A stretch of 64,000 nt of DNA from Mytilus edulis (lineage: Eukaryota), in NCBI RefSeq assembly GCF_963676685.1, contig NC_092356.1, positions 67,766,001 to 67,830,000 on the forward strand, written 5' to 3'. Below, one piece after another: positions 19,838 to 64,000 of this stretch (positions within the stretch are counted from its first letter, which is position 1; the number at the start of each line of letters is the position of its first letter). Position numbers and translations under genes: made by a program. The notes under the pieces are model-generated. The model had not been told where the DNA came from. It saw only the letters and a program-made list of their open reading frames with translations, and searched no databases.

Positions 19838-21190
19838 TAAATAAAGGCAACAGTAGTATACCGCTGTTCAAAACTCATAAATCCAGGGACAAAAAACAAA
19901 ATCGGGGTAACAAACTAAAACCGAGGGAAACACATTAAATATAAGAGGAGAACAACGACATAACACCGAAACGGACCAAGCATCAGACAAAACACCACGA
20001 GAATAACAAATATAACAAGAAAACCAAATACATGAATATGGGATAGACAAGTACCGTGCCACGTCTGATCTCAATATCTCAAAAATAAGAGAAAACACAA
20101 ACGACTCAACGTTAAAATGCAACACACACAGAAATGAACAATAATATAACAATGGCCATCTTCCTGACTTGGTACAGGACACTTTTAAAGGGGAATAAAA
20201 GTGGTGGGTTGAACCTGGTTTTGTGGCATGCCAAACCTCGCACTTTAATGGCAAAGTTAAATATAACATTGAAATGACAACATAATATTACAGGACTACA
20301 ATACAAATAAATAGGAGAACATATCAGACAAAGAAAAACATGATTAATAGATAACAAAAAGCATCAGGTTTAAAATTCAATACGCCAAAAACGCGCCTTG
20401 TCCACACAGGACTTACAAGTGACGCCCAGATATAAAAGATCGAAAGTGAAAAAAGTACAAAGTTGTACAGCACTGGAGATAAAAAGTTGAAAAGGTTTCG
20501 CCAAATACGGCTTTGTTTTTATGCCCGGGATAAGAACATTTTTATTATATAGAACAATTCATGCTATTGCAAACAGTAAATTTTATCAAATGAATATGAA
20601 AGAGATATACATAAAGAAACTGAAGTATTAACTAATTACAGAAAACTAAACCCGAATACATAACGCCCAGATATAAAAGATCGAAAGTGAAAAAGGTACA
20701 AAGTTGTACAGCACTGAAGATCAAAAGTTGAAAAGGTTTTGCCAAATACGGCATTGTTTTTATGCCCGGGATAAGAACATCCTTATTATATAGAACAATT
20801 CATGCAATTGCAAACAGTAAATTTTAACAAATGAATATGAAAGAGATATACATAATGAAACTGAAATATTAACTAATTACAGAAAACTAAACCCGAATAC
20901 ATAATGCTATTAAAGTTTAACACAGAATAGACCCACCCGAATCAGTCCAGGCGTCAACGTAATTACAAAAATGTGACGTCACATACGATGGCGAAAAGGT
21001 ACAAACGTTATGCCACATTTGAATTTATGAAATTTAGAAACAGCATGACGTCACATATGAAAAACTATCAAAGTGAGATAGAATTAGGATTGATTTAAGA
21101 TTATATCAGAACTAAATACTGATAATTAATTTAAACAAAATGCATATTGCAATACTTATTAATAGCAATTAACTGTAATATATATATGTC
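19838..21190 (-). mobile_element. Composite interspersed repeat containing two 241-bp units related to the retrozyme monomer
   Basis: 19838-20185 is an inverted match to 53095-53481; units at 20421 and 20662; decayed hammerhead-like segment at ~20381-20426. Confidence 0.65.
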
Positions 21191-22589: not shown

Positions 22590-24030
22590 ATAAATAATAA
22601 TTTCAAAACCCAAAATTTTGTGACAGCAAATTTTATTTACACAACTTCCTTATTTCATGCTAGTACTGAAGTATTATCTACCGGGCTGGTGATATACTCG
22701 AGGCCTGTTAGCAGAAATATCGACCCAGTGGTAGTAATACGATTGACAGAACCATTTTGATGTTCACCAGATGTGCATTACAAAACATGCCTCTTCATTG
22801 ATGCTCAATGCGAAAATATCTGAAACTTATTAAAAAGATGATTAGTTTACAAACAGAAAAGGACAAAAAGTAAAATCACAAAAATACCAATCTGAGGAAA
22901 ATTCAAAACTAAAGAGTCCCTAATCAAATGACTAAATCAGAAGCTCAAACACATCAAACGAATGAATAACAACTGTTGCATTCATGACTTGGTATAAAAA
23001 AAAATATATAGAAATTATGATGGATTTAACCTGGTTTTAAAGCTAGCTAAACATTTTAATTGTATTACAGTAGCACAAAACTGCATCACATTGACAACAA
23101 TGTGTGAACAACCAAACAAAAAACATAGAGCTTTGTATTAGGAAAATAAATTCCTTATAAATAAAATATTTCCTAAATTTTATGAGAGCGAATTTCATTT
23201 ACATATCCATATTTTCATGTCATTACCATGTCAATTCTAGCTACTAAGCTTGATATATATACCATCAGCGACTTACAGTACACCAGCAGAGGTATCGACC
23301 AAGTTGTAGCAATACAATTAACGGTACCAAATGTTCGATCAGATACGTATTTCGACAAGAAAGGTTTCTTCAGTGATGATTGAGGCCAAAATAATTGAAC
23401 AATCTCAATACAGGCACACGTAGCATACCAGTATTCAAAAGTTGTTTTGATTGAAAGAAAACAACTTCGGGTTATAAACTAAAACCGAAGCAAACACATC
23501 AACTATAAGAGGAAAACAAAGGAACAACAGGAACACTGAAGTGCAACAAAAACAAACACCAACATACATAGAAACGAACTATTATAAAATTTTATAAAAG
23601 CCAAATTTAATTACACAATATCTTAATTTCATACCATTACCGAAGTACTAGCCATTAAACTGTTGATACCCTCAGGAACAGGTCATAGGCAGGGGTATCG
23701 AGGCCCACATTTTTGATCAATCTAAAATTTATTAAATAAAAAGTGCTAATAACAAACAAAAAAAGACATAACGTAAAGCCAATGTCAGGCAAACAATCAG
23801 AGCTATTTATGAAGGAGATATTTTTCTTTATTTTGAATAATTTCCAAATTTTTGTATCAGAATATTTTAATAACACAATATCCGTATTGTTATGCCAAAC
23901 GGAGGTACTGGCTACTGGGTTAGTGACAGTCTACCAGTAGAGGTTTCGACTCAGTTGTAGTAATTATATCAACGGTACCATTTTATCTGCACCAGATGCG
24001 CATTTCGACATCAATATTTCTTCAATGTTC
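22590..24030 (-). repeat. Cluster of decayed retrozyme-like monomers interleaved with SINE-like fragments
   Basis: Recurring ctactgggctggtgata...tcgacccagt followed by hammerhead remnants at ~22765, 23338 and 23990. Confidence 0.6.
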
Positions 24031-24753: not shown

Positions 24754-27700
24754 ATGATAATAGTTTTATCATTTATTCCTATATTGCTGTTTTGTGGACA
24801 AATGACAACTGCTAAAGGAGACTGTAATCGAAAACTTGGTAAATATATCTTACTAGAATATATGTTGTACATATATCATCGTTTATATCATTGCAACAAT
24901 TAGCATTGTTAATTCATAGAGATGTGAGGGCATTTTTGCGTCGATATATTGCTACATGTATGCGTTCACTAATTATAAATGTACGAACTGACTTATTATA
25001 AATAGTAATTGCTCAATACAGATGTAAATTTCGTCAGAATGGAGAACTAGATAATTATAAGTGTATGTTAAAAATTGCTATCAAGTAAGTTAAGAATTAT
25101 TTCTTTTTGAAGTTAAGGTTCTGTTAACAGTTATCAAAGGTACCAGGATTATAATTTAGTTCTCCAAACACACGTTTCGTCTACCTACGACTCACCAGTG
25201 ACGTTCAGATCAAAATAGTTATAAAGCCAAACAAGTACAAAGTTGAAGAGCATTTGTTAAAATAGTTTTGTTGTGGTTTTTTTTTCAGTCCAAAAATAAT
25301 AAAGGCATTATGCATGCTGGATGTGATACTTCAAGTTTAATTTGATGCACAAGTTGCTAAACATTCTCAAATTTACATATTTACTCTTTAATTGTAGAAA
25401 ATGCCTTATTTGATGACCTCCTTCAGATGATGCTGAAAATCAAGGGATCAGGTAGGTTATCTTACACAATCTACGTAATTATATTCAAAGTTGATTAATG
25501 TTGCATATATCTGAATATTATTGTAGAATATTTCTTGGATATTGTTATTTTTCTACTCATTTTATTTAAAGGGATAATTCGCGATTTCTCACTTTTCATC
25601 TTATTATGTTCATAATACCATAAAAAACATATTCACCAAGTTTTATTTCGATATGAAATCTAATAAAGAAGAAAATTGGGAATTATTAATTTTATTTCTT
25701 GAAACTTCCTGACTTATGTGACGTAGTTTAAGTCTTTTTGCATGTCGGGAGTGAAATTAATCTCATTTAAGTCTTGTTCGTTAACCATCTTATAACGCGA
25801 TTTAAAGCGCATCGACGACTTTTGGTGTAGCTATTAACCAACGAAAAATAAGTGATAGCCATGCAACTTTTAAAGTTATATCGTGTGGAATTTTTAAAAC
25901 GAATTTTAATAATAAAAGTAAATCATACAATAGAACATTTTTATGATTTTTTTTCTACAAATACTTTAAACAAACATATGAAACTGACATGATCGATAGT
26001 GTATTAAAAATACATGTTTGTATTCTGACCTTTTTGCTTCATTCCAGTAAACATTTTCACTTGCTTGTACGGTGCAAATAAAATGTGTATTGTTTTGTGA
26101 CACCTAAAGAATGCTGAATGCGTAGTTTAACTCAAGGTAATTAAAAGATTAGCATTATGTAATGCTAATCTTTTGATCCTCATTCAGTGAAATCTAGGCG
26201 TCACGGTTCACTGGCATTTCAGGTGTGTACAACATTTCGTATGAATGGTAAACGGGAGTCAGTCAACGTTTTAGACACAGAAATGTAAAAAAATAATTAA
26301 AATTAATTAACGGGAATAATAAGGTCGCACAATAACTGGAAAGATGTTGTATATTTTTATATTTTGCATAAGATCACTTTTAAATGAATTATGACTTTTG
26401 ATTACTTAAGTAACGATAAAATACTGAATTATTTTAATTGAAGTATAAATTTATAAATAAAAATAGCCTTCTAAACACGAGTGTATGAACTAAAAATTGT
26501 ACTATTTTAAATTAGGATCGGCAGCCTTAAATATTTCAAACAGATCATTAACAATTGCAATTATATAATTTAGTCCATCCAAAGTGATCTTTATTTACCT
26601 ATTTAGGAATTAATGTTCTCATCAAAATATTTTAAATCTCACAACGCTTGAATACTTCAGATATTTGAAAAAAAAGATATGTAAAAAATTGACAGGAAAT
26701 TAAAGGATCTTTTTGGAATGGAATCGGAAAAATTACGAACAGATATGCTTTTCAAGTGTGAAAAACATCAACAAAATTTATACATAATCGGGAATGTCCT
26801 TAGTAAAGTAGTCTTCGTCTCACACCGTAACTATATATAATACTTTAGCTATTTGACCAACGATGTATAAAAAAACCAGAACGAATTTAATGTCATCTTT
26901 CCCTATTTTTTTAATGTAATTATAAGTCTGTTTCAACTGGCAAGAATACCCTTAAAGCGGACAAGCAGTTTATTCTCTAAATTGCTGTCATTGAATATCA
27001 AGAGAGAAAATAAATCCCGAAATTGATTTGAAACTTTGATACTCAATAGTTTTCCTGGAAAATATTCACATCCCTTAGGGATTATTAGTGTACGTCCAGT
27101 TGCGTATATATTACATGCATGTCGGAACAATTGTGATGATGACGAATTTCTTCCTTTATTCGAGAACAATCTAATTGATATATAAATGTCCATAACTTCG
27201 ATGAGCCAAAGAAAGTTATATATCGACCTGTATTTAATCTCTTCTTCTTCTTTTGGTATACAATAGTCTATCGACATTCGATGATTACATACTGTTGGCA
27301 TACGTGGACTAGTCTATTTACAAAACTTTTACCCCAATTTACACAAAATGTATGTTTCTTTCTTATGTTCAATGTATACATGTATATATTTTAATTTGCG
27401 CTATAGTTCCGTAACTTATTATCCAGGCGTATATACGAATGGTCGACAAGTGCGTACATTTTTTTAAATCAATATTTCTGGTATGTTCCGATCTGTCCTT
27501 CACTATTGACAACGAGTATAAATTACATTTTACCAAATTTACCTTTGGAAAAAATATGTATATAGATTTTTATTTCATCAAATCTGTTGTTTTTTGTTTG
27601 TTTTTTTTGGTATTATTTATATTTTTATTAATAATTTTCTTTACACCAGAAATGTTATTCATAAACAAGCGTATGAGTTTAGTAATGACTAGTATATTAT

Positions 27701-28667
27701 ATCACTTTCGGACACGCAAGATAGGGATGTATATTATACACCTAATAGTTCAAAATGGAAAGTTATAAGTGATCGGCCGTGTACACTGATCAATATCATA
27801 AGAAGTGAAACGATGCATGAATTTGCAACCTCGACCGGAAATCGCTTGAATACCTGGACGTGTCACCTCACACCCCTTACAATACCTTTGGGAGTAATAT
27901 CTTTAGCCATGCGGGTGATCAGTGGAGCGAAGATCCTAATTTATTTGAATAAAGTTTATTACATTAAAGAATTATGAACTAATTAGATTTTCGAAAACAA
28001 TTCAAGTTTCACGGAACACTTAATTATTTATGATTTGAAATTTGACTTTTTAACTAATTCCAATATTATCAGTCTAAAAATAACAGATCAAACAATGTAG
28101 GTTACACTGTACCCAAAACAAAATTAATGTAAGTGAATATTTTCTTATACATTTATTATATATCTTACAGTAGAAAGCAATTATTATCTACAAAATAATA
28201 TTTTACTTTTCCAGCACTATTCAAAAATACCCTTTTTTATAGGACGTTCAAGTCATGTTCGTTTACCAAAGAAAAAAGACTTCCCTGCTTTTACAGCATA
28301 CAGATCATCTTCACAATCTTTGTCTGTAAACGAAATCGTCAAGTTCGATAAAATTTGGACAAATAATGGAGATGGATACGACCCCAGCAGCGGAGTTTTT
28401 ACAGCTCCATTAGCGGGACTGTATCGTTTTGCAGCAGTTGTAATGTCTGTTTCTGACGCTGTCTTGTATTTAAGTCTCTATCACAACGACGCACAGATAA
28501 CATCAAGCTATCTCAGTGACAAGGGATACAAGACTGGGACGTTTGATGTTGCTTTGACGTTGGAGCAGGGAGACAAGGTGTCAATTAGATCTAGAAGTAA
28601 AAGTCAGACAATATTCAGTGACGGTAGTAACTACTGTACCTTTTCAGGAAACCTGTTTGCTATGTAA
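24754..28667 (+). CDS. Secreted C1q-domain-containing protein 1 (exons 24754-24838, 25398-25451, 28243-28667)
   Basis: Signal peptide exon MIIVLSFIPILLFCGQMTTAKG; all introns phase 1 and GT-AG; gC1q motifs PAFTA, VKFDKIWTNNGDGYDPSSGVFTAPLAGLY, LEQGDKVSI, TFSGNL. Confidence 0.92.
25127..25255 (-). mobile_element. Decayed retrozyme fragment in C1qDC1 intron 1
   Basis: Matches 36092-36220; hammerhead core mutated (CUGGUGA, GUU site). Confidence 0.75.
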
Positions 28668-29577: not shown

Positions 29578-31014
29578 ATGGTCAACATGATGGTTGTATT
29601 GTTTATACCTGTTTTGCTGTTTTGTGAACAAATGGCTACTGCCAAAGGAGACTGTGATCAAAAACTTGGTAATTATATCTAAATAGAAAATGTTTTGTAT
29701 ATAACTTTTCTTTTACATCATTGTAACAATCAGCATTGTTTATTTAAAGAAATATGAGGGTATTTTTGTGTCGATCTACTTCTAAACGTATGCGGTCAAT
29801 TATTCTCAATGTAATATTTCATTTATTCTAAAAGTCAGTTGTCAATTTAACTGTAGGCTTATTCTAAATGGAAGACTTGACTAGATTAATCTAAATGTTT
29901 AGAGTTTGTATCATGTTAGTTTAAAATTATTCTTCAAAAGGTGTCGATTTATTCTAAATGTAAATTTTGATTAATTCTAAATGCAGTGTTGATTTGACAT
30001 TTTATATTTATGAATAATAGTGCACTTCTGTTATTAAGGATCCCTGTAGGAGCTATTCATTCTGTTAAAAAAATTATGGGTGTTTTTAGAGATAAGAATA
30101 CATAACTCAGTTATGGACAGTTGTCTCATTGGCAATCATACCACATCTTCTTTTTTTATATAACTCAGAAATACTAAATAACAATTGCAAATACAGGTTA
30201 TAAGTACAGCATTAGATACAAATATTGCTTAAACATTCTTGGCTTTACATATCCTGTTTAATTGTAGAGAATGCCTTGTTTGATGACCTCCTTCAGATGA
30301 TGTTGAAAGTCAAGGGATCAGGTAAGTTATTTTACACTATCTACATTGTATATATTGTAAGTTCGTTGATGTTGCATACATCCGAATATTATTGCAAAAC
30401 CTTTATTGATATTACTTTTTCTGTTCTTTTTATTTCAACATAATGTCGGTTACACTGTACCCACAAAAAAAGTAATTTAAGTGAATATTTTCTTATACAT
30501 TTATTATATATCTTACAGTAGAAAGCAATTATTATCTACAAAATAATATTTACTTTTCCAGCACAATTTCAAAATGTCCTTTTTTATAGGAGGTTCAAGT
30601 AATTTCCGTTTACCAAAGAGAAAAGACTTCCCTGCTTTTACAGCATACAGATCATCTTCACAATCTTTGTCTGTAAACGAAATCGTCAAGTTCGATAAAA
30701 TTTGGACAAATAATGGAGATGGATACGACCCCAGCAGCGGAGTTTTTACAGCTCCATTGGCGGGACTGTATCATTTTGCAGCAGTTGTCATGTCTGTTTC
30801 TGACGCCGTCTTGTATTTAAGTCTCTATCACAACGACGCACAGATAACATCAAGCTATCTAAGTGACAAGGGATACAAGACTGGGACGTTTGATGTTGCT
30901 TTGACGTTGGAGCAGGGAGACAAGGTGTCAATTAGATCCAGAAGTAAAAGTCAGACAATATTCAGTGCCGGTAGTAACTACTGTACCTTTTCAGGAAACC
31001 TTATTGCTATATAA
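29578..31014 (+). CDS. Secreted C1q-domain-containing protein 2 (exons 29578-29668, 30268-30321, 30590-31014)
   Basis: Same exon structure and phases as gene 1; intact gC1q; the start could be 29578 or 29587. Confidence 0.92.
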
Positions 31015-34827: not shown

Positions 34828-36086
34828 TAATTGCAACAGAAAATGTTTTAGTTCTAATCTATAGCATAATTCCCTAAATATAAACAGAAACAAGTCCCTT
34901 AAAATGTAACTTGAGGAAATCCAAAATTCCGCATTTTTATTTTCCTATGAAAATTAACACTGGAAGGGGAGATTACTCCACACAAAGGAGTCATTTTTTT
35001 GTCAGTTTGTGGTTGATTTTCTTGAAATTTATGTAAAGTATGATACTTTAAGCATGTATTCTTCTTTCTGTTGTGACGTATAAAATTTTCTGACGTCAGA
35101 CACTCAAATCAATAAATGTGTTCGTAGATAGTAGATGTTTTTGTGTTCTGTTAAATTGTTCCTTTTAAAATTGTTAAACGATGATGATTGATGTACCCAT
35201 ATTTTGACTATTTTATTTATTGTGTCTGTTTATTTAACGCATCAATGTAAAAATATCGGAAATTGATGAGACTGTCATTAAAGTGAGAGGGTTAGCGCTA
35301 TAGAACCAGGTTTAATCCACAATTTTCTACATTTGAAAATGCCTGTACCAAGTCAGGAATATGACAGTTCTTGTCCATTCGTTTTTGATGCGTTTTGTTT
35401 GATTTTGCCATGTGATTATGGACTTTCCCAATTGATCTTCCTCTAAGTTCAGTATTTTTGTGATTTTACTTTTTAATGGGGTTTTAAGTTTGAATTTGAC
35501 GAAACTATATAATTTTCTGCTCATGAAATGTACAAAACCAAAGTGGAATGGGTAGTTTTATTTTTTTTGTGCATTTTTCATTTAAGGGATTGAAAATTTG
35601 AAGCTTTGTGACCATTTTGAAAAAAATAATGTGAAAATTTGGTACTGTTTATATGTGTATATTATATTTTTTCAGCATCTTACTTATCTAAAGAATTATT
35701 TTTACTAAATTTGAGATTGTTTACCTTGACATGTTGAAAAATTCAATAAATTGTCAACTAATGAATTACGAAATCTAGGTTATAGCTTGATAAAATATAT
35801 GAAAACACCTTTAGAGTTGTTTGTTATACTCTAAAGACAGCCAGAACATCAAGAATCAATACATTCTGATGAATAGAAGCGGTAAAGGTATAATTTTGTA
35901 TCAATTTGTATTGATATTTCTGCCTTTTATGCAAGAGTTAACTCCCTTTTCAATGCTATTTTCCATAGGAATTTTAAGTGGCGATTTTTTTAGTCTTCCT
36001 CATGCCAGATTTTATGGGGTTTTTTTCTGTGTATGTTTGGGGTATAATGCTAAAGATTAAAACTTAAAAATCTTCTGTTGCAATTA
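34828..36086. mobile_element. MITE-like element with ~160-bp degenerate TIRs and a nested repeat at ~35060-35475
   Basis: taattgcaacagaaaatg... / ...atcttctgttgcaatta, with the inverted match continuing to ttcctatgaaaa/ttttccataggaa; the nested repeat matches 22866-23050, 41348-41480 and 42415-42570 in inverse. Confidence 0.7.
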
Positions 36087-36126
36087 CTTTTAATAGTTAT
36101 CAAAAGTACCAGGATTACAATTTTAT

Positions 36127-36170
36127 ACGCCAGACGCGCGTTTCGTCTACATAAGACTCATCAGTGACGC
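36127..36170 (-). ncRNA. Type-I hammerhead ribozyme
   Basis: Minus strand GCGUCA-CUGAUGA-GUCU-uaugu-AGAC-GAAA-C-gcgc-GUC^UGGCGU; stems I and II pair and stem III has a palindromic loop. Confidence 0.92.
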
Positions 36171-36481
36171 TCATATCAAAATAGTTAAAAAGCCAAATAA
36201 ATACAAAGTTGAAGAGCATTGAGGACCAAAAATTCCAAAAAGTTGTGCCAAATACGGCTAAGGTAATCTACTCCTGGGGTAAGAAAATCCTTAGTTTTTC
36301 GAAAAATTCTAAGTTTTGTAAACAGAAAATTTATACAAATGACCATATAATTGATATTCATGCCAACACCGAAGTGCTGACTACTGGGCTGGTGATACCC
36401 TCGGGGACGAAACGTCCACCAGCAGTGGCATCGACCCAGTGGTGTAAATAGTTATCAAAAGTACCAGGATTACAATTTTAT

Positions 36482-36525
36482 ACGCCAGACGCGCGTTTCG
36501 TCTACATAAGACTCATCAGTGACGC
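36482..36525 (-). ncRNA. Type-I hammerhead ribozyme (copy 2)
   Basis: Identical to 36127-36170. Confidence 0.92.
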
Positions 36526-36836
36526 TCATATCAAAATAGTTAAAAAGCCAAATAAATACAAAGTTGAAGAGCATTGAGGACCAAAAATTCCAAAAAGTTG
36601 TGCCAAATACGGCTAAGGTAATCTACTCCTGGGGTAAGAAAATCCTTAGTTTTTCGAAAAATTCTAAGTTTTGTAAACAGAAAATTTATACAAATGACCA
36701 TATAATTGATATTCATGCCAACACCGAAGTGCTGACTACTGGGCTGGTGATACCCTCGGGGACGAAACGTCCACCAGCAGTGGCATCGACCCAGTGGTGT
36801 AAATAGTTATCAAAAGTACCAGGATTACAATTTTAT

Positions 36837-36880
36837 ACGCCAGACGCGCGTTTCGTCTACATAAGACTCATCAGTGACGC
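36837..36880 (-). ncRNA. Type-I hammerhead ribozyme (copy 3)
   Basis: Identical to 36127-36170. Confidence 0.92.
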
Positions 36881-37605
36881 TCATATCAAAATAGTTAAAA
36901 AGCCAAATAAATACAAAGTTGAAGCTAGGGTCATATTTATGCTAGATTGACTGGACTAATACATTTATAGGATGTAAGATAAAGTAAGTTTCATATGTGT
37001 TTGTATAGGCTAATGTTTCTATAAAAATAATTAAACAAAAAAACTATAAGTAAAAATATTCAATGGATAATGTTATAGACACTACTCATATTTTGTTTTA
37101 TGAAAAAAAAGAATATTGGAACTGATCAATTTCGTCTGGTTTATATACCGTAATTATTTTAAGTAAAGAGAGCGATTTTTTATTACTTAATTCCCGTGTG
37201 GACCTTGGTACATTGATTCAAATAAATGCCGAAGATTTCAACAAAAATCAGTTATGTTTAGCCCAAGCATAGTTTCAATAGTTTTCTTTTTATCTTCTTT
37301 TTTTCTTGTGATTCGAAACTACGTTCGGAAGAAATTACATCAAATCTGAGCGTGGTGTTGATAAACCATACGAAACCAGACGCAATTTATAAAGCAAACA
37401 TAATAACCCCAGACGCAATATCGTGCTGATCGTAAATCAGATTTATTGTCATTGTATTTTCTTGATAACTAAAATTTATAGATTTAAAGAGGCTTATAGG
37501 TAACTTTAGACTTCAACATTGGCAATTTTGACAGTAACTTTATCGACAGGATGTCGCGAATAGATAATATTTTAAACTAAACTTTTGAATAATTCAAGTG
37601 GCAGA

Positions 37606-40164: not shown

Positions 40165-41033
40165 CTTTAAAAGCTATTTGTAATTTGACTCAAATTTTAT
40201 ATTAAAACCTGAGAAGCAAAAAAAAATCGATCGTTGATTGTTTTTCTTAAAATTTTGGCGGAGCGTTCTTTAAACAAATAATTTGATTGATTAGAAGTAA
40301 GAGAGATAACATTAAAATGAGGACATTTGGTATGATTGCCAATTATACAACTATCAACCATAGATTAAATTACGAAGATAAACGCAATTAAAGAGTCACC
40401 GTAAGGTCTTAAACATAAAAAAAAAAGCTACACCGTATAATCAGCTTTAAAAAGCCCCGACTGAAAATGTAAAACAATTCATATATTTTTTTATATAAAT
40501 AATGACGTCCACTAATAAGGTAGCTGATTAAATATATATGCATTTTGGTGTGCTTCTGTTAAGGCCATACGATACGGTAGCAGGGGGATATAATAGCGTT
40601 TTGAAAATATTTCGTGTTGTTTTCACGACATTGTTAATCAGAACGTTGTCATTACGTGATGTTTCTCACAAGAATGATTACATTTTGCGACGTCGCTTAA
40701 GATGCAGTCACATTTGCGGAACATCAACTGACGTCATGAATTCTACCTAAGAGACAACCGAGAGATCAGTTGCGATGAACGGTTGTTAAGGTGGATCATT
40801 GGTATATATTTCCTAAGAAAGAATTTTCTGATACTTTGCCAAAATGTAGATTTTTCTTCTCTTCCTTTTGTCAAAAACATAATTAACAGTCAATAGATGC
40901 TAGGCAGGGACACTTTTCTCCATGTAGATGTTCTTGTTGTACAGGCTTTCCTTTTTGTTCTCGTTTATATATAAATGCTTTACGTTTCTGTTAAGTATAC
41001 AAAATATTTAAAACAACAAGTAATAAATATCCT

Positions 41034-41270
41034 GCATCCGGAGCGCTTTTCTAGAGTTACCTTCATCAGGAACGCTCAAAGCCATTTTTTTTTAAAGCCA
41101 AGTATGTATAAGAACCGGAACAGTTAAAAAGCTTTATGATCAAAAAGGACATAAAAAGTTACCAAATCCATTATAAGTCAACTTTGTCTGACGACGTATA
41201 ACATTTGTTATAAATTGCATGCGTCCGAAGCGCTTTTATAGATTTACTTACATCAAGAAATATCAAAGCC
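41034..41270 (-). repeat. Two ~187-bp units of a distinct hammerhead-bearing repeat (decayed)
   Basis: Minus strand 41075-41034: GCGUUC-CUGAUGA-AGGuaacuCUA-GAAA-A-gcgc-UCC-GGAUGC; the second copy near 41221 keeps agcgcuuc^ggacgc but has a mutated core. Confidence 0.65.
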
Positions 41271-47556: not shown

Positions 47557-48640
47557 ATGATGGTTTTGTTGTGTATCCCTGTTTTGCTTCTTTGTGGACA
47601 AATTGTGGCTGTCAAAGGAGACTGTAATCGAAAACTTGGTAAGAATATCTTGTACATCAGAAATCGTTCTTATTAAATTTAAAAAAAGTATTATTGTTTA
47701 TTCTAAGAAATATGTGTGCTATTTTATTCTACATGTGTGAGTCTATTTATTTTCAAATGTGCGTTTCATTAATTCTAAATGTAAGTAAACTTTTTTTTTA
47801 ATATGCATATTTTCTCTTTAATTGTAGAGAATGGCCTATTTGATGACCTCATTCAGATGATGCTGAAAATCAGGGGATCTGGTAAGTAAAAGCTGGGTGT
47901 AAGTTTTTGGCTATTATTGACTTTTAAAACATTAATGAAAAATTGATTTATGAACAATTAGTATAGATTTGATTTTTTTCTATTTATTGTTTTTTTTTTT
48001 ATATACTTTACATTACACTGTACCAGTGACAAACGATAGAAAGTGTTTTCTTAATTAAATTATATATTCGAGAAGAAGATCATTGCCGGTGATTGTATTT
48101 TTTTCTTTTCCAGCTTGTTGTATTCAAAATTCAGATTTTGACGTTATTATTTTTTCGTTTTGCATATCGGTCAAATTCTAAATTTTTTAAACATTACAAA
48201 AGGTTTGTTTTATAGGTAGTTCAGTTCATGGCCATTTTCCCAAGAGAAAAGACTTTCCAGCTTTTGCAGCATACAGGGCATCTTCACAATCTTTGTCTGT
48301 GAACGAGGTTGTCAAGTTCGATAAAGTTTGGACAAATAATGGAAATGGATACGACCCTAGCAGCGGTGTTTTTACAGCTCCATTGGCAGGATTGTACCAT
48401 TTTGCAGCAGTCGTCATGTCTACGAATGGAGGAAACTTGTATGTTAGGCTCTTCCACAACAACGATAAGATAACATCAACATATACCACTGATAAGGGAT
48501 ACAAGACCGGCACTTTTGATATTGTGTTGACGTTGGAAAAGGGAGACAAGGTATATATTAAATCCGGACATAACAGTCAATCCATTTTCAGTGATGCTGA
48601 TAACTACAGTACCTTTTCAGGAAACCTTATTGCCTTGTAA
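47557..48640 (+). CDS. Secreted C1q-domain-containing protein 3 (exons 47557-47638, 47828-47881, 48216-48640)
   Basis: Signal exon MMVLLCIPVLLLCGQIVAVKG; same phases as genes 1 and 2; intact gC1q. Confidence 0.93.
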
Positions 48641-52789: not shown

Positions 52790-53481
52790 ATTTAACACCG
52801 TTGCACTTTTGCGATTGTCCAAAGTCAGGAGCATTTGTTAGTCTTGTACAATGTTGTATGATTTTTAATTTTAGTTTATTTTATATATTTCGGAGTTAAG
52901 TATGACAACCATTATCACTGAGCTAGTATACATTTCTGTTTCGGAACCAGCTGAAGCACGCCTCTGGTGCGGGATTTTCTCGCTGCATTGAAGACCTATT
53001 GGTGGCCTTTGGCCGTTGTCTGCTCTTTTGTCGGGTTGTTGTCTCTTTGGTGCATTCTCCCTTTCCATTCTCAATTTTACTGCATTTTTTTTCTTTAAAA
53101 ATGTCCTGTACCAGGTCAGGAATATGGCAATTGTTTTATTATAGTCCGTTTCTGTGTGTGCTACATTTTAACGTTGTGTTTCCGTTGTGTCGTTTGTTTT
53201 CTCTTATATTTGAGTGTGAATTCACATTACTATAAGACGTGTCACGGTACTTTTCTATCCCAAATTCATGTATTTGGTTTTGATGTCATATTTGTTATTC
53301 TCATCGGATTTTGTCTCATGCTTAGTCCGTTTCCGTGTGTGTTACATTTTAATGTTGTGTCGTTGTTCTCCTCTTATATTTAATGCGGTTCCCTCAGTTT
53401 TAGTTTGTTACCCCGATTTTGTTTTTTGGCCATGGATTTACGAGTTTTGAACAGCGGTATACTACTGTTGCCTTTATTTAT
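52790..53481 (+). mobile_element. Adjacent SINE-like repeat (to ~53080) and interspersed repeat (53095-53481)
   Basis: Match to 5450-5575 and, in inverse, to 19838-20185. Confidence 0.65.
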
Positions 53482-60601: not shown

Positions 60602-62105
60602 NTTTAACTCATGAAGCTTGGCCTTTGTAGTGTCTGTACTTTCTTTATCATTAACACATCCTATAAAGATAGTTCCTGATGTAGACAAAGCAAGCGAGTA
60701 TGGACCTAAGATCCCTATGTCACGGAGATTATAGAAGGTAAATTGGTCCTTCCCTGTGTTAACGTCAGGGTCTGGTGACAACACGACCACTCTATCTCCA
60801 CCTTCATCATTTAACCAATCTATCACACAGGTATTACCATTACTGTTACAGATTAAATGTGCAGGGTAGGGAAATAATTGTTTGGTATGTGTGTCATATT
60901 GATATTCCTTTAGTTGTTTTCCTTCCTGATCCATGACCACCACTACACATCATCCTGTGGCAGAGAATGGTTCTCCTGAGGTCCTTGCTCCTATGACGAC
61001 TATGTTATTATGAGGCTGACTTCATGCAGGAACTTCTTAGGAAGAAAGATAAGAAGTTAGCAATATCCTTTAATTCTACTTTCCGCTATATAGATGACGT
61101 TCTTTCACTAAACAATTCAAAATTTGGTGACTATGTGGAACGCATCTATCCCATCGAATTGGAGATAAAGGATACTACAGATACAGTTAAGTCGGCTTCA
61201 TATCTTGACTTACATCTAGAAATTGACAATGAGGGTCGGTTGAAAACAAAACTTTACGACAAAAGAGATGATTTCAGCTTTCCAATTGTGAACTTTCCAT
61301 TTCTAAGTAGCAACATTCCAGCAGCACCTGCATACGGGGTATATATCTCCCATTTGATACGATATTCCCGTGCTTGCATTTCCTATCATGATTTTCTTGA
61401 TAGAGGGTTACTGCTCACAAGGAAGCTATTAAACCAAGAGTTCCAAATGGTGAAGTTAAAATCATCCCTTCGTAAATTTTACGGACGCCATCACGAGTTG
61501 GTTGACCGTTATGGAATAACCGTTTCACAAATGATATCGGATATGTTCCTTACGTCGTAACTACAATCCCCTTCCCTTTCATGAATGTGACCTACCGAAT
61601 TAGACTATTTACCGGATTTGTAATCACTTAAGCAACACGACGGGTGCCACATGTGGAGCAGGATCTGCTTACCCTTCCGGAGCACCTGAGATCACCCCTA
61701 GTTTTTGGTGGGGTTCGTGTTGTTTATTCTTTAGTTTTCTATGTTGTGTCATGTGTACTATTGTTTTTCTGTTTATCTTTTTCATTTTTAGCCATGGCGT
61801 TGTCAGTTTGTTTTAGATTTATGAGTTTGACTGTCCCTTTGGTATCTTTCGTCCCTCTTTTATCACTGGTCACATGGATACTGGGTGGTAACAATGGTTT
61901 TACATCATACTTAGAATCTGTCATCTCCCCTGTCACGGTTTTGATTAGTTTTAGTTTGGTCCCATAATCTGGTAGGACAAGAATATTATTTGAATAACAT
62001 ATTTCTATTCCATAAAAATCAGTGTTTAAATTTGTTATAACTTCAATTCTATCTCCCCTTAGTTAGACATTTTGGTAACTTTGATCTGGTACCATTCCCC
62101 ATATC
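60602..62105 (-). pseudogene. TRIM/NHL-like beta-propeller pseudogene split by a Penelope-like insertion
   Basis: Removing the insertion gives ...MTDSKYDVKPLLPPSIHVTSDNNIVVIGARTSGEPFSATG*CVVVVMDQEGKQLKEYQYD...LFPYPAHLICNSNGNTCVIDW; in-frame stops on both sides of the insertion. Confidence 0.7.
61005..61861 (+). mobile_element. Young 5'-truncated Penelope-like retroelement (RT C-terminus plus 3' tail)
   Basis: Uninterrupted ORF 61024-61560 with FRYIDD, YLDLHL, KLYDKRDDFSFPIVNFPFLSSNIP. Confidence 0.9.
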
Positions 62106-62252: not shown

Positions 62253-62619
62253 AATAGTTATCAAAGGTACCAGGATTATAATTTAGTACGCCAGACGCAT
62301 TTTTCGTCTACATAAGACTCATCAGTGACGCTCATATCAAAATATTTATAAAGCCAAAAAGTACAAAGTTGAAGAGCATTGAGGGTCCAAAATTCCAAAA
62401 AGTTGTGCCAAATACGGCTAAGGTAATCTATTCCTTGGATAAGAAAATCCTTAGTTTTTCAATTAATTCAAAGTTTTGTAAACAGGAAATTTATAAAAAT
62501 AACCACATAATTGATATTCATGTCAACACCGAAGTGCTGACTACTGGGCTGGTGATACCCTCGGGGACGAAACGTCCACTAGCAATGGCATCGACCCAGT
62601 GGTGTAAATAGTTATCAAA
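62253..62619 (-). mobile_element. Retrozyme monomer with short terminal redundancy; hammerhead at 62288-62331 with a mutated stem III
   Basis: Colinear with the 355-bp unit; aatagttatcaaa at both ends; core CUGAUGA-GUCU..AGAC-GAAA-A-augc-GUC. Confidence 0.87.
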
Positions 62620-64000
62620 TAGTAAATCATCCAAACATATGTGATGTAATTAATAAGGGTCATTATTATACTTTATGCACACTTCGTATATCATTCAATC
62701 ATATCATTGTACCTGCGGTATTTGCTAGTTTTATAAGCTCTGGTTTCCATAACAACATGTGATCATATTGGCAACGGTTGTCAATGTCTAAAATTAAAAC
62801 CCGCCCAAACCCAATGTTTTCCGAATAAGATCACCCGCTGCGGCCGATGTTTATTTATTCTTATTTCTACATCATTTCCGTTGGTGTGTTGTTGTTATTG
62901 AAATAAAAACCTAACATTACAGTGCAACATATAATAAAACCTATAAGTATAAGAAAGGATAACATTACCAAGGATGTGACGTTACATACGGACCACTATA
63001 GTATAACGTTAGGTTATGCGCAATTAAAGTCATTTTTGTAATCTGTCGTAATTTGTGCCTTTTCATTGATACAATGTCCTTTTAATCACTTAGTGGGAAA
63101 TCATATCAAAATGACGTTGCGCACGATGTTGATACTTGTCCGTGTTACACGACGTTCTTAAAATAATGCGATTTTGACTATTTCAAAGAACGTTTCAAGC
63201 ATTCAAGCTTATAATTGATGAGGTCAATTAGCTGTAGTGAATTTGATAACCATATTTCGTTTTGTCGATCATTGCAAAGTTTTACCAAAAAAAACTCAAT
63301 GCGATCGTATACATATTTTTTCAACGAAGTTTTACTTAGTACAGGAGTTGTCAGTCTTTCAGACCATAATGGAGCATTTTCCTTTTGCAAGCAGTTCACA
63401 TTAATAAATTTATAAATTAGTTTCTTTTACACAAACTTTTTTATATAAATTAGATATTGCATATCTGTAGATACTCCTTTTGTTTCTTTCCATTTCATAG
63501 TTTAATCATTTCCCGATTCCTTCTTTTTCGCAATATATCTAGTTGTTCATGCTTTTCTCATTTCAAGTATGCGTACCCGCTGTTTGTTTTACAATAAAAT
63601 TTTATTTTTATTTTGACGACTTAAAAACTGTTGATGGACTACTTTCCTGATCTATATAAAACAAAAAAAAATATATGCTAAAAAAAAAAGTGATCCCGAT
63701 ATTTTTTTTATTTCAAGCTTATGTGATCAACATTGAAATTTAAACTTTTACTTTCCTGTCTCATACTTGGGTTAACTTTGTTCTCTTCATTCGAAATAGA
63801 TAAATTTTATATACAAATTAAAAAACACTAGCATCGCCTCAATTACGTTTTGCGAACGGGAAGATACATATAAAAGAAAAAAAATGTACTGCCAAGACCA
63901 TTGCATCATGACGCGGTTAACTTGGTAAAATTAAACTAGCTATTATTTCCAACAGAAAAATATTGAAAATGCCTCTTCAAAATAATTTGATATAAGTAAT

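Follow-up and report, generated by a model that had tools for sequence, protein, structure and literature searches.

Introduction

Mussel retrozymes have been described as tandem arrays of 350-390 nt units that carry a type I hammerhead ribozyme and for which circular RNA has been shown (Cervera and de la Pena 2020, PMC7229834). Penelope-like elements were proposed as the drivers of retrozymes in 2020, with no driver family, shared element or fixed insertion end being named in the portions of the text available to us (PMC7229834). Likewise, no conserved RNA structure at the 5' end is mentioned in the accessible parts of the study of Naiads by Craig et al. 2021 (PMC8557442), where retrozymes are taken to exploit Penelope-like elements generally. 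A preprint by Li, Clavereau and Pollet (2026, bioRxiv 10.64898/2026.07.22.740005) reports that retrozymes share sequence with the terminal repeats of Penelope-like elements; as available to us, it deals with vertebrates, chiefly Xenopus, includes no molluscs, structure or mapping of insertion ends, and places Naiads in coral only, unlinked to any retrozyme.

With respect to the initiation of copying, the closest described system is Poseidon_Ac of a lizard (Frangieh et al. 2024, PMC11167929), for which the available text reports an internal start that lies 3' of the hammerhead cut by about 85-92 nt, a requirement for about 55-60 nt of RNA beyond this start, a preference for ATT targets and genomic ends that match the starts. 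A second start (the "tail") has been described for Poseidon and many Naiads, according to the parts of the literature accessible to us.

Here, we analysed a stretch of 64,000 nucleotides of the Mytilus edulis genome (NC_092356.1, positions 67,766,001 to 67,830,000; hereafter, the window), in which a preliminary description made from the letters alone had pointed to a second, hammerhead-like structure inside a retrozyme monomer, on the strand opposite to that of the hammerhead.

Results

Retrozyme copies in the window

The window contains a non-LTR retrozyme insertion of family A on the - strand at 36092-36924, consisting of 2.3 (to two decimals, 2.35) tandem 355-nt units at 100% identity, with the RNA-sense 3' end fixed at 36092 and the 5' end truncated at 36924. 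It is assigned to the non-LTR retrozymes by tandem units within the 150-450 nt range that carry a type I hammerhead, and the unit corresponds to the mussel retrozyme of Cervera and de la Pena, as far as their text is available (PMC7229834). The hammerhead next to the stretch of interest lies at 36482-36525 (- strand), with cleavage between 36488 and 36487, and further type I copies occupy 36127-36170 and 36837-36880 on the same strand; Rfam recognizes all three as Hammerhead_1 with 33 bits (E 3e-6), just below the gathering score of 34 bits, and returns no match anywhere in the window at the gathering threshold. The letters quoted in the preliminary description are present on the + strand at 36374-36443, within the 355-nt unit, and the structure described below recurs in a second, identical copy at 36738-36795 (- strand), detected both as a tandem repeat and by profile match.

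Profile matches further identify four decayed copies on the - strand, at 22656-22734, 23218-23308, 23630-23701 and 23893-23959. The first and the last of these account for two of the three places where decayed relatives had been noted; the copy at the third place, 62519-62605, exists as well but is not decayed (97% identity over 105 nt) and belongs to an older family A insertion (62253-62624, - strand, 92%), the fixed end of which is the same as in other copies. A short, 5'-truncated family A copy (25126-25254, - strand, 86%) yields an alignment that begins at the fixed end. Genome-wide, a 17-mer of the motif has at least 9705 exact copies compared to none for the reversed control; the retrozyme copies that share the motif group into at least four families, A (the window unit), B, C and E, and tandem runs of at least eight near-identical units exist.

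Elsewhere in the window, a 241-nt dimer at 20422-20904 is about 70% similar to the retrozyme middle and lacks the stem-loop, and a family E retrozyme hammerhead lies within a decayed copy at 41020-41080 (- strand). Three similar frames (28137-28667, 30547-31014 and 48191-48640) resemble what we take to be C1q-domain exons.

Predicted fold and conservation of the stem-loop

The flagged stretch is a conserved bulged stem-loop, as predicted for the - strand, i.e., the strand of the true hammerhead. The element (36383-36440), identified by pairing and covariation across families, is predicted to form a rod that comprises, in order, P1 (7 bp, 36440-36434/36389-36383), a 1x4 internal loop, P2 (6 bp, 36432-36427/36399-36394), a near-invariant core with small bulges (36425-36415 and 36407-36400) and a variable apical hairpin with its loop at 36412-36410. 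It is followed by a hairpin that covaries and has a C(UUCG)G loop (36359-36381, - strand) and then by an AUG at the place where the Naiad start codon sits. Both strands fold better than shuffled sequences (z -2.3 to -3.3 for + and -2.4 to -3.8 for -), and the strand is indicated by G-U pairs, which favour the - strand fold: across 7 families, 49 of 49 P1 cells and 42 of 42 P2 cells pair on this strand, compared to 42 and 37, respectively, on the opposite one. Two-sided changes were found in 10 of 31 pairs among the 6 sequences that align cleanly, a count matched by none of 500 shuffles, where the set holds one copy per family (6-7 sequences) and the structure was predicted from the same sequences, so that the shuffle counts flatter it; the counts of the covariation tool refer to the 6 sequences, N1 having been added by anchored slicing for the 7-family pairing counts. 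The core pairs never vary between families and hence contribute no covariation signal.

Covariation and excess conservation, two of the properties by which the preliminary description proposed to judge the motif, are both present. Between families (one copy each), the 59-nt motif is 88% identical, compared to 63% for the hammerhead and 58% for the middle of the unit, which makes it the best-conserved part across four retrozyme families. Among 83 distinct family A copies, variants at a frequency of at least 15% affect 0 of 59 positions of the motif, 14 of 185 of the middle and 0 of 40 of the hammerhead. The motif is also, as had been stated, the GC-richest part of the unit (0.55-0.60 compared to 0.45-0.50 across the hammerhead). 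When whole circles are folded, the predicted structure persists, with pair probabilities of 0.87-1.0 in families A and B and 0.5-0.85 in a mutated family C copy. The covariation supports an unknotted rod that starts 6 nt from the end, rather than the nested double pseudoknot, beginning at the cut, of HDV-like ribozymes; no such pseudoknot could be drawn by hand, and Rfam yields no ribozyme match at the motif. Look-alikes of Pol III A and B boxes, seen by eye, were dropped, given that the strand is interrupted by T runs.

The nested stems read from the + strand survive in part. Real helices of the - strand are mirrored by the outer stem and by the GAAA hairpin, whereas the middle stem, GCUGGUG/CACCAGC, is unsupported: it shows no two-sided change, compared to three in the competing helix. 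We rejected this stem both on its own and as a pseudoknot, with 47 of 49 cells pairing on the - strand via G-U and zero two-sided changes. When the 4-nt bulge was compared by eye with the middle stem in published oyster, acorn worm and fish Naiads, one to three of the four positions failed.

Hammerhead-like letters of the + strand

On the + strand, CTGGTGA occupies 36389-36395 and GAAA 36409-36412, and the GUC ends at 36416; this stretch (36389-36416) mirrors P2 together with the 4-nt bulge and the apical loop, and is unconserved as a ribozyme core. The two defects recognized at the outset are real. The position of the conserved A6 is G in 4215 family A motif copies genome-wide and the canonical A in 64, mostly single copies at the level of background mutation, and the base of stem II is poor, with U.C and A.A mismatches beside the core (by eye). 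The core halves never occur together in one family: GAAA is present in families A and C and absent from B and E, CUGAUGA is limited to family E, which itself lacks GAAA, and CUGNUGA is absent from all Naiad families compared (N1-N3). The GAAA mirrors the loop of the variable apical hairpin, the stem of which changes on both sides between families, and Rfam detects nothing hammerhead-like on the + strand of the window at E<=10.

Occurrence of the element in Naiads

A profile built from the retrozyme motifs alone matches an autonomous element, N1 (locus L152), directly downstream of the terminal repeat and upstream of the AUG of an intact 1053-aa frame, in which a GIY-YIG endonuclease lies N-terminal to the reverse transcriptase (RT). 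The same profile matches two further Naiad families, N2 and N3, at the corresponding place; N2 shares 87% identity with the window motif over 63 nt and is the nearest Naiad in sequence terms. In each of the three families, GIY-YIG precedes the RT in one frame, with GIY-YIG detected at the Pfam cut-off in N1 and N3 and by motif in N2, and RVT_1 scoring below the cut-off in N2 and N3 and not being listed for N1. The proteins bear the marks of Naiads, namely, the endonuclease first, CxC, GxKF/Y (GPKF/Y) and DKA, and N1 matches Naiad_Mgal by eye. Thus, N1-N3 share domain order and motifs with the Naiads of Craig et al., and the stem-loop is located at the published consensus starts, as far as these are available (PMC8557442). 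No CYGANGA hammerhead core was found in the one 3' region examined per family. The window itself holds a 5'-truncated N2 copy with the RT C-terminus and the 3' end (60997-61866, +), which ends just before the expected start of the stem-loop, the 3' end of an N1 insertion (35294-35475, +), which stops 5 nt short of the stem-loop position, and 3' ends of N3 insertions at 53296-53481 (+) and 20005-19835 (-).

The core word has 22 occurrences in the accessible part of the PMC8557442 supplement; judged by eye, the element itself accounts for 14 of them, each placed at a Naiad consensus start or close to it, out of 54 consensus sequences listed. The carriers come from three corals, two oysters, an ark shell, three mussels, three acorn worm families, a toadfish and, by file order, a pearl oyster; most of these starts have their own compensated P1 and P2, and the corals keep mainly the core. 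The exact core word is absent from the displayed starts of cnidarian (except Acropora), nematode and arthropod Naiads. N1 (L152:4903-5000) contains an extra 24-nt hairpin between P2 and the core, and the published sequence of the acorn worm Naiad-1_Skow, as available, has an insert at the same place.

Tandem arrays that lack a hammerhead, and in which a Naiad 3' end is combined with the stem-loop and the start of the ORF, were found at L472:660-4060, L466:1250-1950 and L473, with units of 279, 201 and 129-137 nt; they terminate at the same site as the retrozymes and are minimal non-autonomous Naiad derivatives. Across 40 loci around Penelope-like frames, the profile matched retrozyme copies and Naiad junctions only (six of seven in context), so Neptune-type and other elements with a C-terminal endonuclease, at the junctions of which the motif is absent, were rejected as partners. 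Two hammerhead-bearing Penelope-like families (L151:5650-5690 and L169:4760-4790) have a short hairpin ending GGTATCCAC 3' of the hammerhead, which is faintly P2-like, lies inside the element end and gives no profile match. A metagenome scan with an 18-mer yielded real homologues in 2 of the 80 loci checked (L319 and L277), the others being due to chance; in the contig L277 (1470-1800), a diverged motif copy is followed by family E-like sequence. At L155:597 and 1037 and at L166:2307, a hammerhead-like core directly precedes a tRNA-like SINE head (by eye).

Insertion ends

We mapped insertion ends in loci chosen through hammerhead, motif or protein searches rather than at random, keeping alignments of at least 40 nt and at least 85% identity out of 231 distinct ends in the loci sampled. 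The RNA-sense 3' ends peak 41 nt (family A), 34 nt (B) and 48 nt (C) past the hammerhead cut, whereas the 5' ends are scattered. Measured from P1, the retrozyme and Naiad peaks coincide at -6/-5. Ends located at most 12 nt upstream of P1 make up 69 of 90 in family A (the other 21 fall elsewhere), 19 of 22 in B and 33 of 38 in C. The Naiad alignments end within -15 to +2 in 18 of 32 cases for N1, 63 of 75 for N2 and 8 of 10 for N3, the remainder being read-through junctions (4, 5 and 1, respectively) or upstream ends. Insertions of three retrozyme families and three Naiad families thus terminate 4-7 nt upstream of the stem-loop, regardless of the distance to the hammerhead. In the window, the 6-nt spacer and the site of insertion ends (about 36447), the putative start of reverse transcription, span 36441-36447 on the - strand, at a distance of 41 nt from the hammerhead cut on its 3' side; an internal initiation signal of the Penelope type would be expected to leave 3' ends at a constant position immediately 5' of itself, as is the case here. 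Only one peak is seen in retrozyme and Naiad ends, with no second start site of the "tail" type 30-40 nt apart.

The junctions of six families are T-rich and then mostly A (T then A in family A); (TA)n accounts for 3 of 328, family E contributing no terminal copies to this sample. In three insertions into recognizable repeats, inspection by eye revealed no duplication, and the junction contained a shared TT. Family D, a 551-nt retrozyme without the motif, served as a control: it ends at +370 in 19 of 34 copies, in (TA)n. Its hammerhead word has 1128 genome matches, and no partner for it was found among the 40 loci around Penelope-like frames. The family D hammerhead (L192, L171-L200) is near that of family B, and its ends in (TA)n resemble those of Neptune-type elements.

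RNA reads

Four raw RNA-read runs, obtained from animals other than the source of the genome, were mapped, with the strand call assuming the usual stranded protocol. Retrozyme RNA is expressed mostly from the hammerhead (-) strand: over the motif, first mates on + are 4-9 times deeper than those on - in three runs and unbiased in the fourth. Some + strand RNA is also present, with first mates on - at a depth of about 220-300 over the motif. Reads that join unrelated flanks at 36445-36447 occur in all four runs, in agreement with the genomic ends, and sense reads about 900-2400 deep cross the -6 site with no pile-up of ends. Head-to-tail reads are compatible both with circles and with tandem transcripts. 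At 36416, the predicted + strand cut, no read ends, and none ends at the true hammerhead cut either, so this absence carries little power. In one of the four runs (X23), 55 minor-strand reads end at 36368, in the UUCG hairpin, 48 nt from 36416. At the insertion-end site of N2, RNA depth drops to below 15, starting from about 300 in three of the runs and about 140 in the other, a pattern that promoter, cut and internal start could each produce; the Naiad 5' region is nearly unexpressed in all four runs (depth 0-13).

Discussion

We consider it probable that the Naiad RT binds the stem-loop and starts copying internally, about 6 bases upstream of it, and that Naiads thereby spread retrozyme circles. 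This reading as an RT start signal follows from the presence of the element in intact Naiads combined with insertion ends that track the stem-loop; the structural signal for RT recognition that was among the initial suggestions thus gains support from an element common to autonomous Naiads at a fixed distance from the insertion ends. A role in circularisation, suggested along with it, finds none, considering that hammerhead-free Naiads carry the element as well. It is from the sequence, its conservation and covariation, the RNA strand, the sharing with Naiads and the fixed ends that we infer binding and initiation. Tandem copies would be transcribed, and the transcripts cleaved by the hammerhead and circularised, as shown for mussel retrozymes (PMC7229834); the near-invariant core of the stem-loop would be bound by the Naiad protein. 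The GIY-YIG domain would nick AT-rich DNA, and the nicked end would pair with U-rich sequence located 5' of the stem. Copying would then proceed from six nt 5' of P1, through the hammerhead and round the circle, to a random stop, leaving head-to-tail copies with one end fixed and the other ragged. Judging from the sequence comparisons, the stem-loop probably derives from a Naiad.

In pairs of SINEs and LINEs, a 3' stem-loop is held in common, such that a non-autonomous RNA borrows the structured recognition element of its partner. The SINE/LINE element, however, is located at the RNA's 3' end and is copied first, whereas the retrozyme stem-loop would lie downstream of the start and be copied only on the second lap. 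The geometry is the same as in Poseidon_Ac, with the start 3' of the hammerhead, RNA 3' of the start and AT-rich targets, as far as can be judged from the available text (PMC11167929). That text, however, describes an element with a C-terminal endonuclease that uses its own RNA and two starts, and defines no conserved fold (PMC11167929). By contrast, the case proposed here involves the Naiad clade, one start region, a fold that covaries across phyla within the required stretch and, by inference, use in trans by a circle.

Genomic ends look alike whether they result from internal initiation or from an RNA cut at the same place, and the fixed ends are accounted for equally well by an undescribed self-cleaving or protein-assisted ribozyme that cuts six bases upstream, so that the RNA 3' end primes copying and the ribozyme replaces the hammerhead in Naiads. 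The near-invariant core and the apparent lack of canonical hammerheads in Naiads would fit, and other retroelements contain ribozymes situated entirely 3' of the position they cut. Nevertheless, we regard this as unlikely: the site is deeply covered by sense reads with no pile-up of ends, arrays of at least 8 near-identical tandem units fit an uncut circle, no Rfam ribozyme matches and an HDV-like fold is not drawable, and, in the available text of PMC7229834, intact circles are the form in which mussel retrozyme RNA accumulates, and a full monomer could be isolated from a transcript of the dimer. If such a ribozyme existed, mussel retrozymes would possess two different ribozymes on one strand, one making the circle and one opening it for copying, and the stem-loop, which is conserved from corals to a fish, would represent a class of its own. 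We likewise see little room for the possibility that the main function of the element is that of an internal promoter or a signal for translation in Naiads and that retrozymes have kept it for expression, with insertion ends following transcript ends. Its position at the very 5' start of the displayed Naiad consensuses, before the AUG, where the internal promoter of Penelope is found, and the abundance of retrozyme RNA speak for such a function. However, two-sided changes and G-U asymmetry indicate an RNA helix, Naiad RNA 3' of the site is almost absent, and a transcript that starts at -6 and is cut by the hammerhead would end at the cut, yet the insertions extend 34-48 nt beyond it. A second role of the element as a promoter may nonetheless exist.

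The genome contains many hammerhead-bearing elements with a C-terminal endonuclease, so one might suppose that another Penelope-like clade moves the retrozyme and that the motif, inherited from a Naiad ancestor, is a passive relic. A relic, however, would hardly be the best-conserved segment across four families, with no common variant at 59 positions in family A compared to 14 of 185 in the middle, nor would insertion ends be expected to track it, and the profile singled out only retrozyme copies and Naiad junctions among the 40 Penelope-like loci; we hold this alternative to be very unlikely. The original proposal of a variant or vestigial hammerhead on the + strand, which would make the circle ambisense like a viroid, appears extremely unlikely. 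In family A, the core-like words do stand in the right order, some + strand RNA exists, and one run shows the pile-up at 36368. The antisense ribozyme is, however, unsupported because the core is split between families, with GAAA lacking in B and E, CUGAUGA confined to E and CUGNUGA found in no compared Naiad; because G6 outnumbers A6 by 4215 to 64, the latter mostly single copies; and because G-U pairs favour the - strand, from which most of the RNA reads originate. Moreover, two mismatches stand at the base of stem II, the predicted cut is 48 nt away from the pile-up, and Rfam is blank on the + strand.

In the literature covered by our search, which extended to few subscription papers and did not include Repbase, we found no description of the element or of a Naiad-retrozyme pair. 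The mover of retrozymes has only been proposed since 2020, and a Naiad can now be named as the probable partner of one of the most abundant sets. Given that this partner belongs to a Penelope-like clade without a hammerhead, the circle appears to be chimeric, combining a hammerhead with a start signal from Naiad. For an RT related to telomerase, a covarying RNA element of 58 nt is thereby defined, with intact Naiad frames and the RNA both in hand. By the sequence evidence, it would constitute a cis signal common to an autonomous and a non-autonomous retroelement.
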